UHGV virus genome: UHGV-0119412
Direction: 5' to 3' (one strand)
Source of the DNA: a virus
Length of the DNA: 30,381 nucleotides
The notes under the pieces are model-generated. The model worked only from the letters and a program-made list of their open reading frames with translations, was not told where the DNA came from and made no database searches. Shown here one piece after another: positions 1 to 29,259 of this stretch; within the stretch, counting starts at the first letter, position 1; every line of letters starts with the position of its first letter. Both the position numbers and the translations under genes were made by a program.

Positions 1-49
1 AGGGAATAATAAACTTCAAAATTGCATTTGCAAGTTTTGGTTTGCTTTT

Positions 50-20331: not shown

Positions 20332-21336
20332 ATGGGCGCGGAGATTAATATTTTGGAAACTGATTTTAAAATAACCCTCGAAGGTTTCGCTACTGAGCAA
20401 GAAGCAAATAATATCGGTAATTTCACACTAGAAGCTATCCGAGCTTTAACAAAAAATCTCAATCTTGATATCTCCAAATTAAAATGCGTGATTGTTTCCT
20501 ATAACTTCAGTGAAGCTCTTCAAAAGGTAACATCCTCTTACCAACACAAATCCCCTAGTTCGTTTACCAATAGCAAACAGGGCGCAGCCGTCGGGCAGTT
20601 AGTAACAAAAATTGGCAATGATGGGCTATGTGAAGAATATACCCTTGTGCTATCGATTGATTTTTTTGTTGAGCTTTTCAATGATGGTAGCTTCTTAAAA
20701 CTGAAAGAAGAAGGATACCTCGCAGTCATCCATCGCATTCACCATGAATTAGTGCACGTACATGAAAAAAACTTACTAACATGCTTAGCCCAAAACTTTA
20801 CAGTCAACGAGTATGGTAGCGCGCTTCTTATCTCAGCCACGCGTGCATGGTCTGAATATCTCGCTAATTACATGTCTTCGGGGTCTGCCCCTCAAGAAAC
20901 TATCGATTTATTTTTAGAGAATCTTGACACTGTTGTAAATGAAGTATCTGACGAGATTGAAAAACTCATCTGGGGTTATAAGTACGGTAATATTTCTCTG
21001 AATGACATGTATCTCGAAGTAAAAAAACGTATCAGGCTAATCATCAACTCTTATGCTTATGCGATGGGTTATGTCCATTCTCTAAACATCAATATTAAAG
21101 AATACGATCCAAAGCTATCCCTTACACTATCCAACTCAAAGATAAGATATCAATTATCAGAATTAGGCATTGCTTTTCAGAATCTTTATGGGAAGTTTAA
21201 TGACCAGCACATTACAGGTTTTGGTGATTTTCGGGAGATAACAATAATCATTGATGAAATATTCAAGCAGTTTGGGCTTGTTTTAGAGTGTCCCGATTGG
21301 TCTGGCGACGGTGAACTCTACATACATGTAAATTAG
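20332..21336 (+). CDS. Hypothetical cargo protein with HExxH...NE motif (putative zinc-metallopeptidase-like), between portal and cos
   Basis: 334-aa AT-rich ORF. HHELVH at about nt 20740-20757, with NEYGS about 17 residues later, resembles the gluzincin HExxH-x(n)-E pattern. No obvious Shine-Dalgarno before the first ATG. Confidence 0.6.
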   Translation: MGAEINILETDFKITLEGFATEQEANNIGNFTLEAIRALTKNLNLDISKLKCVIVSYNFSEALQKVTSSYQHKSPSSFTNSKQGAAVGQLVTKIGNDGLCEEYTLVLSIDFFVELFNDGSFLKLKEEGYLAVIHRIHHELVHVHEKNLLTCLAQNFTVNEYGSALLISATRAWSEYLANYMSSGSAPQETIDLFLENLDTVVNEVSDEIEKLIWGYKYGNISLNDMYLEVKKRIRLIINSYAYAMGYVHSLNINIKEYDPKLSLTLSNSKIRYQLSELGIAFQNLYGKFNDQHITGFGDFREITIIIDEIFKQFGLVLECPDWSGDGELYIHVN

Positions 21337-21811: not shown

Positions 21812-22753
21812 ATGCAAGGTGAAGTTGACGAACAGCAACCCAATGAGATTATGTCGGAGTTTGGATACTATCCAGTAGAAGTTAACATTGAGACTGAACA
21901 ATTTTCTTTGCTTACTTTACCTGGTCTCAATGAGAAAGTGGAGCGTGTTAACAATGATAAAAACGTTGTGAAAGGTTGGATATACCCTGGAAACCAAGAT
22001 GTATATAACCTTAATGGTGGCATATCCACAATGCCTTATAGTCACCGTGTATTCAGTATGCCCAAAACGCACACACTAAAATTAAAAAATACATCCTCGT
22101 TAGAAACTCTCAACTTTATTGTGTGGTGCCTTTCTTTTTTCAAGGGAATAAGATTGACAACCACTGACGCTGGTTTTTTAGATGCAACCACTATCAAGCC
22201 CACTAAGTTAACCGACTTTATTCTCGTTGGATGCTCTGAAAAAGAAATCATAGAACTGGCTCTTAATTATATAAATGGCAAACATAAGGATGCGCACTCC
22301 CCCAAAAGAATTGCGGCAGTGGTGCATGCACTATTCTTATCTCAAAACCCACAATACCTTTCTTTTGAAAAATTCCAGTACCTTTACATGGCACTTGATG
22401 GGTGCTTTGCTTTGTCGTGGGCTGAGCATGACAAGGCTCCTGATAAAAAACCGCCAAATCATTACAAGCGATTAAAGTGGATGTGCAAAATTTATGGGTT
22501 ATCAATTCCCACATGGGTGTCAGGTAAAAAAAACATTTCTGGCATCCGCAATGATAATTTTCATGAGGCTATTTTTTTTGGTCAACCGCTTGGTTTCTCA
22601 AGTATTAACAACAGTCAATATGGTAACGATATATTGCTGCAAATGCAGGCACTGGTATGTCGCCTATTAGCGGCAATACTGTCGGTTAATGATTGCAGTT
22701 ATCTCAAATCTTCGGTCAACTCACGAGATTACCATTCATTAAAAATAAATTAA
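21812..22753 (+). CDS. Hypothetical cargo protein with HEPN-like RNxxxH motif (candidate abortive-infection/defence RNase)
   Basis: 313-aa AT-rich ORF with a good Shine-Dalgarno (GGAGAAAGA) and the motif GIRNDNFHEAIFFG (about nt 22546-22563); it sits where P2 carries old/tin, between cos and the replication module. Confidence 0.65.
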   Translation: MQGEVDEQQPNEIMSEFGYYPVEVNIETEQFSLLTLPGLNEKVERVNNDKNVVKGWIYPGNQDVYNLNGGISTMPYSHRVFSMPKTHTLKLKNTSSLETLNFIVWCLSFFKGIRLTTTDAGFLDATTIKPTKLTDFILVGCSEKEIIELALNYINGKHKDAHSPKRIAAVVHALFLSQNPQYLSFEKFQYLYMALDGCFALSWAEHDKAPDKKPPNHYKRLKWMCKIYGLSIPTWVSGKKNISGIRNDNFHEAIFFGQPLGFSSINNSQYGNDILLQMQALVCRLLAAILSVNDCSYLKSSVNSRDYHSLKIN

Positions 22754-27016: not shown

Positions 27017-27526
27017 TCAAATCAGACCAAACGATGCGCCAATACCGCTCATGGTATCGACCACGCTCGACATAGCTGGATTAGTCTGCAGACGTGCATG
27101 CAGCGCCAGAGCCGACAATGACAACATGCGAATGCCGGAGTTAACGCTTTCAATCATGTTGTGCTTACGGGCAATGGTCAGACGTTCATCAGATACCGCG
27201 CCGCTCGCCAGTTCGCCGAGTTCACGCATTGCGCGCATGACATAAGACTGCAATTTGTCTTTAGCCAACTCATTAACCGGCACGCATGGTAGGCAGTGAA
27301 TCTGCGCTAAAAAACCATCAATGAGGGTTGAATCTTCGGTCAGGTCAGTCAGCAGCCACAATTCAGGTGGCGTGAACTGGTGAGGCTGTTCCGGGTTGAG
27401 CTTGTTACGTAACGTTTGAACGTTCATACCTGCACGCTCGGCCAGCTTCGCCATGTTGTGACGCTGTGCGAAAATGCGGCATGCTTCGTCATAGTGGGGA
27501 TGTTTGGAAACCTGAAAATCAAACAT
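27017..27526 (-). CDS. cII: CII-type regulatory protein (186 CII-like)
   Basis: Start at the internal Met MFDFQ... (GAGGG Shine-Dalgarno) gives 169 aa, the size of 186 CII; HTH-like segment MNVQTLRNKLNPEQ; second gene of the early lytic operon. Confidence 0.65.
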   Translation of the reverse strand: MFDFQVSKHPHYDEACRIFAQRHNMAKLAERAGMNVQTLRNKLNPEQPHQFTPPELWLLTDLTEDSTLIDGFLAQIHCLPCVPVNELAKDKLQSYVMRAMRELGELASGAVSDERLTIARKHNMIESVNSGIRMLSLSALALHARLQTNPAMSSVVDTMSGIGASFGLI

Positions 27527-27558
27527 GGTTAAATTCCCTCTAACTTGCATAATCAAAT

Positions 27559-27930
27559 TCAGTTAAGAGCGGTGCGCTGGTCGATGTAGCGACAATCAAT
27601 CGCTTGTTGAGTCAGCTTATCGCGCCATGCTTTTACGTTTACGAGGGTTCGGCTTCGTTTAGCAGCTTCCTCTTTGTTGGAAAAGTCTTTGGTCGGAGCT
27701 TTGAGAAGGACTCCCTCATCGAGCCATTGCCAGACCAGACGCTCGCTAACACCGCGAGTAGCGGCGAAGTCTTTCACAGTCATCGTGTCTGACATAGCGG
27801 AGCGAATCATTGTCTGTAGAGCTGGCAGCATGGCGGTAACGATGGCATCAAACTGTGTTGGATCTAGCAGCACAGTTTGATTTTGTGAGTTTTGCGAGTC
27901 GTGCGTCGAGATTGATTTTGCATCTGACAT
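27559..27930 (-). CDS. Apl/Cox-like HTH protein, first gene of the early lytic operon
   Basis: 123-aa ORF with an AGGAGA Shine-Dalgarno; HTH-like MTVKDFAATRGVSERLVWQWLDEG; divergent from the repressor gene. Longer than 186 Apl (87 aa) or P2 Cox (91 aa). Confidence 0.55.
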   Translation of the reverse strand: MSDAKSISTHDSQNSQNQTVLLDPTQFDAIVTAMLPALQTMIRSAMSDTMTVKDFAATRGVSERLVWQWLDEGVLLKAPTKDFSNKEEAAKRSRTLVNVKAWRDKLTQQAIDCRYIDQRTALN

Positions 27931-28051
27931 ATCGCATTATCTCCTGTTGTTTGAAATGTAGTGCAGTGGTGTGCATCTTGGTCGATGAATGCCACTATAG
28001 ATCGTAAAAAGTTTTCTGTAAACACCCATAAAATTATCTGTAGGGGTTTTT
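27931..28051. promoter_or_regulatory. Immunity switch region (lytic and lysogenic promoters and operators, not resolved)
   Basis: 121-nt gap between the divergent repressor and Apl-like genes; AT-rich, with TTGAAA and repeated TCTGTA elements; individual promoters could not be assigned by hand. Confidence 0.45.
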
Positions 28052-28912
28052 ATGAGTTCTGAGCTTGATGTTCAGTGGCGTGTTAGTGCAACGAACGGCG
28101 TATTGGAACGCTTAATGTCAGCCTATGGGGTCAAGATGCAAAAGGATTTGGCTGACCTGCTAGGTATCGCTAAACACAGCGTTAGCGGCTGGGTTCAGCG
28201 TGATGCAATACCTGGCAATGTCATAGTTAGGTGTTGTCTTGACACGGGAGCTGATATCAATTGGCTTGTAAATGGAGAGCTTGCAAATGCAAATCACGAG
28301 CGAGCCAGTTGCAAGTTAAAAGGCAAAGAGCTTTATGACGAGATTATGACGAATGGTGGTAAAACCGTTTTGCGTAGGATTCTTGATGCGTATGGCTTTA
28401 CCATGCAAAAGGAGCTCGGTGATTTGCTCGGCATTTCCTCTGGCACAATTAGCACATGGGTAAGGCGAGATTTTTTCCCTGGTGATGTTGTTGTTACATG
28501 CGCTCTTGATACCGATACGTCACTGGAATGGTTAGCAACAGGCAAGGGGCAAATGCGAGCTAACAGGGAAGATGTCACATCTGGTTTTTCAATTAAAAAA
28601 TCTCGTCTTGAATCTGGTGAGCTTAAGGATGCAGGAACGTGGCATCCTGACCCCTCAATGATTCCTTCTAACTCAGGGGAATTGATTTTTGTTGACGGTG
28701 TAGCTGCCTCTTGGCTTGTCGACTGTTCTGCTTCGAATATAAGTAATGGTCGCTGGTTAATTGATATCGACGGCGCTCTTGATGTTTTTGATGTAATTCG
28801 TTTACCTGGTGGAAAAGTCAGGTTGTCAAATAAGTCTGCTGAGTTTGAATGCAACATTACCGACATTACGCCTGCCGGGGTTGTAGTTTTCACATTGGAA
28901 AAACACGTATAA
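28052..28912 (+). CDS. cI: CI-type immunity repressor with a tandemly duplicated N-terminal HTH domain
   Basis: 286-aa ORF. Two homologous segments (...LERLMSAYGVKMQKDLADLLGIAKHSVSGWVQRDAIPGNVIVRCCLDTGADINWLVNGE and ...LRRILDAYGFTMQKELGDLLGISSGTISTWVRRDFFPGDVVVTCALDTDTSLEWLATGK) are followed by a C-terminal domain; upstream of int and divergent from the lytic operon. Confidence 0.75.
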   Translation: MSSELDVQWRVSATNGVLERLMSAYGVKMQKDLADLLGIAKHSVSGWVQRDAIPGNVIVRCCLDTGADINWLVNGELANANHERASCKLKGKELYDEIMTNGGKTVLRRILDAYGFTMQKELGDLLGISSGTISTWVRRDFFPGDVVVTCALDTDTSLEWLATGKGQMRANREDVTSGFSIKKSRLESGELKDAGTWHPDPSMIPSNSGELIFVDGVAASWLVDCSASNISNGRWLIDIDGALDVFDVIRLPGGKVRLSNKSAEFECNITDITPAGVVVFTLEKHV

Positions 28913-28920
28913 GGGAAATT

Positions 28921-29259
28921 ATGAAACGTAAACTCTTTTTAGCTATGCTTCTTACCTTTTCTTTTGGCTCCTTAGCCGCTGAAAAAACACAGGATTTAGA
29001 TGGCGCTAAGTTTGGTGAGGATTGGCCGTTAACTTTTGAAAAAGCTACGGTGTCTTGCGTTAACGGTAAGTATGCCTTTGTATACGACAAAGCAACTGAT
29101 GACCGATACCCATTAAATGGTTTTGCTATTGATGGAGTAAAGTCTGGAAAGCTTGAGGGGAGCAATATTGATGCTGTTTGGAAAGACAGTCCAGAGTATG
29201 CAGGTGTAAAAATTCCTTTGGATCCTGTAATGGATGCCGCAACAGCACTTTGCGAATAA
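28921..29259 (+). CDS. Secreted small protein, YebY/DUF2511-like (moron between cI and int)
   Basis: Start at the internal Met gives 112 aa with a signal peptide (MKRKLFLAMLLTFSFGSLAA), a YPLNG motif and a C-terminal Cys, resembling E. coli YebY as recalled. Confidence 0.5.
   Translation: MKRKLFLAMLLTFSFGSLAAEKTQDLDGAKFGEDWPLTFEKATVSCVNGKYAFVYDKATDDRYPLNGFAIDGVKSGKLEGSNIDAVWKDSPEYAGVKIPLDPVMDAATALCE

Follow-up and report, generated by a model that had tools for sequence, protein, structure and literature searches.

The 30,381-nucleotide stretch of viral DNA analysed here (UHGV virus genome UHGV-0119412; hereafter the window) encodes an immunity repressor, CI, in which the DNA-binding part of the repressor of phage 186 is present twice, and the question that this locus raises is what such a repressor does with a second DNA-binding head. 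The window is a PSP3-type (Eganvirus, 186-like) P2-family prophage and its CI has the order N-terminal domain 1 (NTD1), N-terminal domain 2 (NTD2), C-terminal domain (CTD). The answer that we favour, at a probability of about 0.6, is that the two heads divide between them the DNA-binding work that is done by the single head of 186 CI, with NTD1 acting at the lytic promoter pR and NTD2 acting at palindromes elsewhere. According to this scheme, NTD1 would bind type-specific repeats in the ~57 bp between the -10 element of pR and the cI start, and through this binding it would determine immunity and keep the lytic promoter repressed. The target of NTD2 would be an 18-bp palindrome, AACTTGCAwwTGCAAGTT, found in three places: the promoter of the late activator, the junction of the apl-like gene and cII, and cI itself. 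Binding there would silence the late activator and connect the flanking sites with the oligomer that the CTD is expected to form. The positions of the features discussed are collected in Table 1.

Architecture and spread of the two-headed repressor

The original prediction had been that this repressor of 286 amino acids (aa) carries two homologous helix-turn-helix (HTH) segments in front of its CTD, and this was upheld by the open reading frame (ORF), by Pfam, by BLASTP, by a hidden Markov model (HMM) of our own and by AlphaFold2. PF07022 (Phage_CI_repr) matched CI in two separate stretches, with 176.4 bits where the cut-off is 22 and E=1.3e-52 over the protein as a whole, and the match of PF16452 (Phage_CI_C) covered residues 180-274 with 74 bits (cut-off 27, E=1.3e-20). 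When residues 1-91 were aligned with residues 92-200 by BLASTP, 37 of 74 positions were identical (50%, E=1e-24), and the similarity of NTD1 and NTD2 is far above chance. The AlphaFold2 model of the monomer (predicted local distance difference test 75.7, predicted template modelling score (pTM) 0.39) consists of two five-helix bundles and a beta-rich CTD, with low-confidence linkers at residues 78-87 and 167-176; the first of these is followed by a short helix at residues 92-100, and the LKGK..Y motif of this inter-domain linker is conserved. That 186 CI has 192 aa and a single HTH domain, as had been said, is correct (2fjr, U32222), and the second segment of the window CI is truly an HTH domain as it has its own PF07022 match and aligns with the single NTD of 186 CI. 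In fact, residues 105-279 matched the whole of 186 CI end to end (phmmer to 2fjr, E=1e-21), and the predicted CTD matched the 186 CTD (2fkd_A) with a template modelling (TM) score of 0.88 and a root mean square deviation of 1.8 A (Foldseek). NTD2 and the CTD are thus colinear with the entire 192-aa 186 CI and therefore NTD1 is the supernumerary domain. CI lacks the S24 C-terminal domain of the self-cleaving class of lambda CI and LexA: Peptidase_S24 was absent from the best 25 of the 27 Pfam families that matched CI at E<=1, and the CTDs of LexA and lambda CI were weak structural neighbours (E of 5e-6 or worse, target TM of 0.4-0.6), behind the 186 CTD.

Comparison with the repressors of related prophages confirmed the two-domain form but not that it is peculiar to this prophage, as the window CI is essentially that of PSP3 and occurs widely among Enterobacterales. 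Identity is 100% with CI of vB_EcoM-613R3, 98.3% with that of Salmonella phage PSP3 (Eganvirus PsP3; AAN08403, AY135486) and 97.6% with that of SEN1, and among more distant relatives about 76% with those of Midge and RCIP0057 and 73% with that of SW9/SI22. A large protein database contained 731 CI relatives, and the best 120 of their clusters at 90% identity were almost all 276-290 aa long (three were shorter, at least one of them labelled partial) and came from Klebsiella, Enterobacter, Salmonella, Escherichia, Citrobacter, Cronobacter, Pantoea and Brenneria. CI relatives are encoded by 580 stretches in IMG/VR, and cI was found in 68 of 5426 complete E. coli genomes, in 40 of the 68 at >=99% identity. 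When NTD2 together with the CTD was used as a query against 1.84 billion representatives at 50% identity, the full-length clusters among the best 150 matches comprised 71 with one NTD and 13 with two. The two-domain CI is, accordingly, a sizeable and recurrent minority of the family and, as the original prediction required, not its norm.

The simplest account of a second domain is that it has no special role, being a neutral or recent in-frame duplication with both heads of equivalent specificity. The two domains are clearly homologous at 50% identity and tandem HTH repeats arise easily, as seen in the distant matches P0210 (525 aa), with seven HTH repeats of the Xre type in tandem, and P0260 (433 aa), with five; their linkers are acidic or short, and both lack a C-terminal domain of the CI type. 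The recognition helices of the two heads differ, however (AKHSVSGWVQRD in NTD1 and SSGTISTWVRRD in NTD2), the two domains evolve at very different rates, and the architecture has been kept in at least 120 clusters at 90% identity, in many genera and down to about 45% identity. A duplication without a role is, therefore, very improbable.

The two-domain form is also not confined to the PSP3 lineage. It was found in the Klebsiella phages ST437-OXA245phi4.2 (Felsduovirus, 311 aa) and Kp4860-7 (Elveevirus, 313 aa), whose CIs are only about 31% identical to that of the window. In this pair NTD2 is 82-83% identical to the domain of the single-domain proteins P0146 and P0150, compared to 55-62% between NTD1 and NTD2; likewise, in the PSP3 lineage NTD2 shares 78% identity with the NTD of the single-domain protein P0129 and 48% with NTD1. 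This points to the extra head having been gained independently in at least two to three CI lineages, the alternative being concerted evolution. The cI gene of ST437-OXA245phi4.2 has a perfect palindrome, GTCACAA-CAA-TTGTGAC, in its inter-domain linker (L004, 1748-1764), which resembles the TCAC-N5-GTGA sites of 186; a linker palindrome of this kind (TCAC-N7-GTGA) may not be general in the duplicated Klebsiella clade, as none is present in Kp4860-7.

In the literature searched, whose limited coverage does not prove absence, no description of a duplication of the CI HTH domain was found. The sole published comment that we found explains the greater size of the PsP3 protein by 'a longer C-terminal domain' (Nilsson et al., PMC3448106); this is contradicted by the domain analysis and the published statement needs correcting. 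An automatic Pfam scan shows the two-domain layout and the architecture itself is, therefore, not hidden, and since the protein is already in the databases as PSP3 CI and the layout is a recurrent minority form it is not categorically new. The two-domain CI is an undescribed variant of the 186 switch for which we propose a division of labour, and what appears to be new here is the pR-NTD1 cassette with its helix covariation and the NTD2-linked palindrome at three control sites.

The pR-NTD1 cassette

The candidate pR faces the apl-like gene and its position relative to the cI start is the same as that of pR in the 186 record. In the switch region (27931-28051), where a search for spaced operator half-sites had been suggested together with the original prediction, two direct repeats 22 bp apart were found, AAAGTTTTCTGTA (28008-28020) and AAAATTATCTGTA (28030-28042), and a weaker CTATAG lies over the -10 element (27994-27999). 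The direct repeat has 11 of 14 matches at an offset of 22, which was reached by 2.7% of shuffles.

A comparison of 80 related loci gave a mosaic pattern. The DNA from the apl-like gene to the -10 element of pR is conserved, the ~57 bp from there to the cI ATG occur in discrete types, and the divergence of this interval runs on through NTD1 and fades in NTD2. Between the window and locus L055, for instance, identity is 100% from -700 to -100 relative to the cI ATG, 45-65% from there to about +260 and about 80% in NTD2. The 14 HTH variants of NTD1 fall into about six recognition-helix classes (Table 1), each with its own pR-proximal DNA, and Midge, RCIP0057 and SW9/SI22 carry NTD1 and operator cassettes other than that of the window. 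Types B, C and D have direct repeats of their own at 18, 21 and 21 bp, respectively, and altogether the direct repeats around the -35 element of pR are significant, at spacings of 18-22 bp, in four of the seven types. NTD2 is constant across the types and so it cannot be what tells them apart. From this pattern we infer that NTD1 reads the pR-proximal elements and sets immunity. The suggestion that the duplication bears on immunity specificity is thereby supported, as the NTD1 helix and the pR DNA change together among heteroimmune relatives while NTD2 stays constant.

A different explanation for the repeats at pR is that each chain behaves as a pseudo-dimer, its heads binding together to composite operators that are asymmetric, with one conserved and one variable half, in which case the stoichiometry would change to one chain per operator and the targets would not be split. 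In the pR repeats of types A, B, D and E the left part is indeed AAAWTT-like throughout and the right part varies (TCTGTA, TTGTTG, TTTTG, CCTGTA), the heads are joined by a flexible linker of about 25 residues in the AlphaFold2 model, and a mycobacteriophage repressor is known that contacts an asymmetric site as a monomer through two domains (PMC9283540). On the other hand, there is no TTGCA half-site of the NTD2-type palindrome in 27994-28051, type C has AAATCG in place of AAAWTT despite the same NTD2, the AT-rich left part may be mere promoter spacer, and the full palindromes at the three other control positions, described below, are left unexplained. We consider the pseudo-dimer unlikely and prefer the reading in which only NTD1 is responsible for pR.

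Some further features of this region were noted. The stretch 27931-27990 (…TTGAAATGTAGTGCAGTGGTGTGCATCTTGGTCGATGA…), from the start of the apl-like gene to the -10 element of pR, is almost invariant even where the CIs are only 58-65% identical, and it contains two GTGCA motifs 10 bp apart; it presumably holds sites for the apl-like protein and the promoter pL, which in the 186 switch is a weak lysogenic promoter downstream of pR and facing it. A consensus scan of 27700-28300 found no plus-strand promoter (pL), and a TTGAAA...CATCTT candidate at 27951-27979 was picked by eye only. A third copy of the type A repeat, at 27809-27819 (ATTGTCTGTAG), was rejected as a distal operator as it tracks the allele of the apl-like gene, being present in L055 (type B) and absent from PSP3 (type A). 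The motif TGCATCT, which occurs three times near the switch (27919, 27972 and, inverted, 28134), was also rejected because two of the copies are coding and none is palindromic.

NTD2 and the shared palindrome

When conservation was scored over 26 sequences below 93% identity, the mean amino-acid conservation was 0.93 in NTD2, 0.77 in the CTD and 0.72 in NTD1. The most conserved segment of NTD2 is its recognition helix. The helix SSGTISTW(V/I)RR(D/E/N) was found in 81 of 84 loci and the other three were off by one or two positions. In the larger set to which 74 further two-domain loci from a scan with the single-domain protein P0130 were added for the count of helix and palindrome covariation, 119 of 128 unique two-domain proteins had the helix core T(I/V)STW; these 119 have at least 22 different NTD1 helices, and the linker in their genes has the core TTGCAwwTGCAA or nearly so. 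The recognition helix of P0129, a single-domain CI of 196 aa, is the same as that of NTD2 (SSGTISTWVRRN/D), and in all 31 P0129 loci in IMG/VR the palindrome AACTTGCATTTGCAAGTT, with the halves AACTTGCA-TT-TGCAAGTT, lies in the spacer of a divergent promoter (TTGACA-17-TAGATT). For a second test of this kind, close relatives of the single-domain P0130 were sought, but IMG/VR contained none above 54%.

The window was then searched for the palindrome AACTTGCAttTGCAAGTT, with W allowed at the two central positions. At up to 4 mismatches exactly three sites were found in the 30-kb window, where the chance expectation is 0.1 at up to 3 mismatches (40 first-order Markov resamplings of the window). 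The site at 19-36 overlaps the -35 element of the promoter of the late-activator gene (ogr/pag, the homologue of 186 B; TTGCAA-16-TATTAT on the minus strand, in the same place in 613R3), and it is kept in 613R3, PSP3, SI22, Midge and RCIP0057, phages that span three immunity types (A, B and C); 186-type phages with a single NTD do not share this stretch between D and ogr. Positions 1-49 of the window lie inside the D/ogr intergenic region and ogr/pag itself would be just left of the window, its presence being deduced from 613R3, PSP3 and Midge. The second site, at the apl-like/cII junction, has better copies (AACTTGCAAAATCAAGTT, 2 mismatches) in PSP3 and many relatives. The third site, inside cI, is found at +208 to +227 of the gene in nearly all two-domain loci and is kept in nearly all of the 128 unique two-domain proteins, which have at least 26 different NTD1 helices. 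Third-position conservation over codons 77-79 (CTT GCA AAT) is 0.88 compared to a mean of 0.57, which ranks first among the 284 three-codon windows of cI and points to a constraint on the DNA itself. Moreover, in the nine proteins with a TMSAW helix in NTD2 all the cores are altered, e.g. to TTGCAAATGTAA and TTAAAAATGTAA, the canonical core being present in 0 of these 9 compared to 55 of the other 119. Near the intragenic site, a perfect half-site TTGCAAGTT is present at 28309-28317, 14 nt past the palindrome, and a degenerate palindrome AAGGGGCAAATGCGAGCT with 5 mismatches is present at 28544-28561 in the linker after NTD2, a position homologous to that after NTD1; the latter may be a remnant of the duplication.

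It may also be asked whether NTD2 binds DNA at all. It could be a structural spacer or a docking surface for an antirepressor or for neighbouring subunits, with NTD1 as the sole DNA-binding head and the palindromes bound by another factor or left as relics. In 186, it is the antirepressor Tum, and not cleavage, that inactivates CI. The intragenic palindrome could indeed be the fossil of an ancestral operator, as it is colinear with the operator of the single-domain gene, at the same 77-nt distance and in the same frame. However, the segment most conserved in NTD2 is precisely its recognition helix, and a single-domain repressor, which must use this helix to bind DNA, has an identical one; the palindrome recurs at three positions that make functional sense and does not change between heteroimmune phages; the third-codon positions of its core are the most conserved in the gene; and altered helices are accompanied by altered cores. 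A non-binding NTD2 is improbable, more so than the pseudo-dimer, and we retain the reading that NTD2 recognises the palindrome.

The same colinearity bears on the origin of the second head. The DNA upstream of the single-domain P0129 gene is colinear with the window from the linker to NTD2, the palindrome is 77 nt before the codons of GGK, the motif at the start of the domain, in both, and it is in the same frame, read as LAFA upstream of P0129 and as LANA in the window linker. Either a cassette of operator and HTH was fused upstream of a single-headed gene, whereby the old operator became linker codons, or the single-headed form arose by loss of the cassette. The intragenic site may be the former promoter operator of a single-headed ancestor that is now translated as linker. 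Taking all this together, we give an even chance to a broader proposal of natural subfunctionalisation: the dual specificity of 186 CI would be distributed over two heads, so that exchange of a ~250-300 bp cassette of pR operators and NTD1 would swap immunity while the control of the flanking sites and of the late activator under a frozen NTD2 is left untouched. The extra head, acquired at least two to three times, would then be a recurrent route to new immunity types and the site inside cI possibly the operator of the single-headed ancestor.

Several observations weigh against the division of labour and keep its probability at the level given above. The architecture, the homology to 186 CI, the mosaic pattern, the covariation and the positions and conservation of the sites are observations, and the assignment of heads to sites in the two-domain CI is a proposal drawn from them. 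The AlphaFold2 model, with its pTM of 0.39, does not give the relative orientation of the heads reliably. At pR, the repeats are short, AT-rich and non-uniform; types E, F and G have no significant direct repeat near pR, F and G having inverted repeats around the -35 element instead, and a uniform direct-repeat operator model for all types fails for this reason. The covariation of NTD1 with the pR DNA may be in part linkage because NTD1 adjoins pR in one recombination cassette. Functional prophages need a matching repressor and operator, however. As for the palindrome, the site at the apl-like/cII junction is weak in the window (3 mismatches) and degenerate in type E loci; protein constraint contributes to the conservation of the intragenic site because it encodes the partly conserved peptide ELANAN; and the covariation of TMSAW helices with altered cores comes from nine related proteins.

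Table 1. Features of the window at the cI switch and the recognition helices of the immunity types
Feature	Positions	Strand	Details
pB-like palindrome	19..36	.	AAATTGCATTTGCAAGTT, 1 mismatch; downstream of gene D; overlaps -35 of late-activator promoter
cII	27017..27526	-	169 aa from ATG at 27526; PF06892 E=3.8e-46; limits per PSP3 annotation
FR-like palindrome	27542..27559	.	AACTTGCATAATCAAATT; between apl-like stop codon and cII start
apl/cox-like gene, first of lytic operon	27559..27930	-	123 aa; ORF; Cox-like in phage Midge annotation
Candidate lytic promoter pR	27994..28022	-	TTTACA (28022-28017), 17-nt spacer, TATAGT (27999-27994); 10/12 consensus matches
Immunity-specific interval, pR -10 to cI start, candidate operators	27994..28051	.	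predicted from repeats and type differences
cI, immunity repressor gene	28052..28912	+	286 aa, ATG start, stop codon included; ORF listing, Pfam
NTD1, extra variable HTH domain	28091..28285	+	residues ~14-78; recognition helix AKHSVSGWVQRD; Pfam and own HMM
FL-like palindrome	28278..28295	.	AGCTTGCAAATGCAAATC; cI codons 76-81, NTD1-NTD2 linker
Inter-domain linker	28286..28354	+	residues 79-101; AlphaFold2 model
NTD2, near-invariant HTH domain	28355..28552	+	residues ~102-167; recognition helix SSGTISTWVRRD; own HMM
CTD of 186 CI type	28583..28909	+	residues ~178-286; PF16452, Foldseek to 2fkd_A
Immunity type A/E			NTD1 recognition helix AKHSVSGWVQRD
Immunity type B			NTD1 recognition helix HANNVSSWLARN
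Immunity type C			NTD1 recognition helix PSNSVSTWVQRN
Immunity type D			NTD1 recognition helix YANNISSWLARD
Immunity type F			NTD1 recognition helix AANNISGWTKRG
Immunity type G			NTD1 recognition helix AKSNVAGWLQRD

Gene neighbourhood and comparison with known systems

By ORFs and Pfam, the switch of the window has cI, a DUF2511 gene and int on the plus strand and the apl/cox-like gene followed by cII on the minus strand. The 123-aa apl/cox-like protein has no Pfam match, and its PsP3 homologue was reported as a singleton without a detectable domain (PMC3448106); for the homologue in the Midge record, an HHpred match to a Mesorhizobium DNA-binding protein is cited. The DUF2511 gene (YebY-like, with a signal peptide; 28921-29259, plus strand) separates cI from int in the lysogenic operon, has no counterpart on the 186 map and is presumably a moron expressed in the lysogen. 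Elsewhere in the window, two plus-strand ORFs at 20332-21336 (334 aa) and 21812-22753 (313 aa) are in a variable region between the portal/terminase genes and the replication gene, and their products have no Pfam or PADLOC match; we take their position to be the cargo site where P2-like phages often carry anti-phage genes.

The wheel formed by 186 CI is a textbook alternative to the lambda switch. The oddity of 186 is that one HTH domain deals with two unrelated sequences, and a relative in which these jobs are on separate heads, if the proposed division is true, allows genetic dissection, so that the contributions of pR repression, looping to the flanking sites and late-gene control become separable. 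It would also explain how heteroimmune P2/186-like prophages diversify in immunity by exchange of a very small cassette, which matters for superinfection exclusion between the prophages of Klebsiella, Enterobacter, Salmonella and E. coli, and it could supply synthetic biology with orthogonal repressor/operator pairs on a common scaffold.

The nearest known system is that of 186, whose site types were read from the annotation of GenBank U32222 and from PMC3675496. 186 CI (2FJR, 2FKD; U32222) has the same PF07022 HTH family and the same PF16452 CTD as the window CI, and the gene order int - cI / pR - apl - cII, with a strong lytic promoter abutting the cI start, is the same in the window although its apl-like gene has no Pfam match. 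What differs is that 186 CI has one HTH domain in 192 aa, whereas the window CI has two in 286 aa and so departs from one HTH per subunit. According to Shearwin et al. (2002), as cited in PMC3675496, the single HTH of 186 CI binds two distinct recognition sequences. In 186, FL is in cI codons 90-96, and the FL-like site of the window is in codons 76-81, both of them after the first NTD; FR is at the apl/cII junction (U32222), as is the corresponding palindrome of the window at the apl-like/cII junction; and pB with its two annotated CI sites is in the intergenic region between D and the late activator, the same position as the palindrome at 19-36. The centre-to-centre spacing of the FL-like and FR-like sites is 736 bp in the window compared to 678 bp for FL and FR in 186 (PMC3675496), where these two sites lie some 300 bp to either side of pR. 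The sequences of all candidate sites differ from those of 186, where FL, FR and pB are TCAC-N5-GTGA palindromes, unlike the 186 pR sites, whereas the window has TTGCAwwTGCAA, so that the correspondence to the flanking and pB-type sites is one of position and conservation. In 186 the same 57 bp before cI holds three pR operators two helical turns apart (U32222, PMC3675496), the place where the window has its direct-repeat-like elements. Contrary to the expectation that a duplicated head would change operator spacing, the control sites as a whole look to be arranged as they are in 186 and not re-spaced. By analogy with 186 CI, it is plausible that the CTD assembles the window CI into a 14-mer wheel that wraps and loops DNA. 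Repression of the late activator and of pE would also be part of the proposed scheme.

Among closer relatives, the CIs of PSP3, SEN1, vB_EcoM-613R3, Midge, SW9/SI22 and RCIP0057 have the same family and architecture and do not differ in kind from the window CI. The P0129-type CI (196 aa; IMG/VR L086-L116) shares the CTD family, the recognition helix and the 18-bp palindrome and has no NTD1; its palindrome is in the spacer of a divergent promoter whereas the window copy is inside cI, and its neighbours are a 91-aa protein without a Pfam match and a TraR/DksA zinc-finger protein in place of the apl-like gene and cII. In L086-L116 the cI gene is at the very end of many contigs of ~15 kb (many are about 13-17 kb), and such contigs could represent another type of element, perhaps a satellite or a prophage prediction that was cut short. 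The monomeric mycobacteriophage repressor (PMC9283540) likewise has two DNA-contacting domains in one polypeptide, but their folds are unrelated to those of CI, the second domain is no duplicate and the protein is monomeric, whereas the window CI keeps its oligomerisation domain. Finally, the C repressors of P2 are an unrelated small single-domain family that cannot be aligned with CI (PMC3448106). Their operators resemble the 18-22 bp direct repeats at pR of types A-D, and in P2, P2 Hy dis and W-phi heteroimmune relatives differ in the directly repeated operators at the early promoter and in the spacing of these repeats (PMC1904268).

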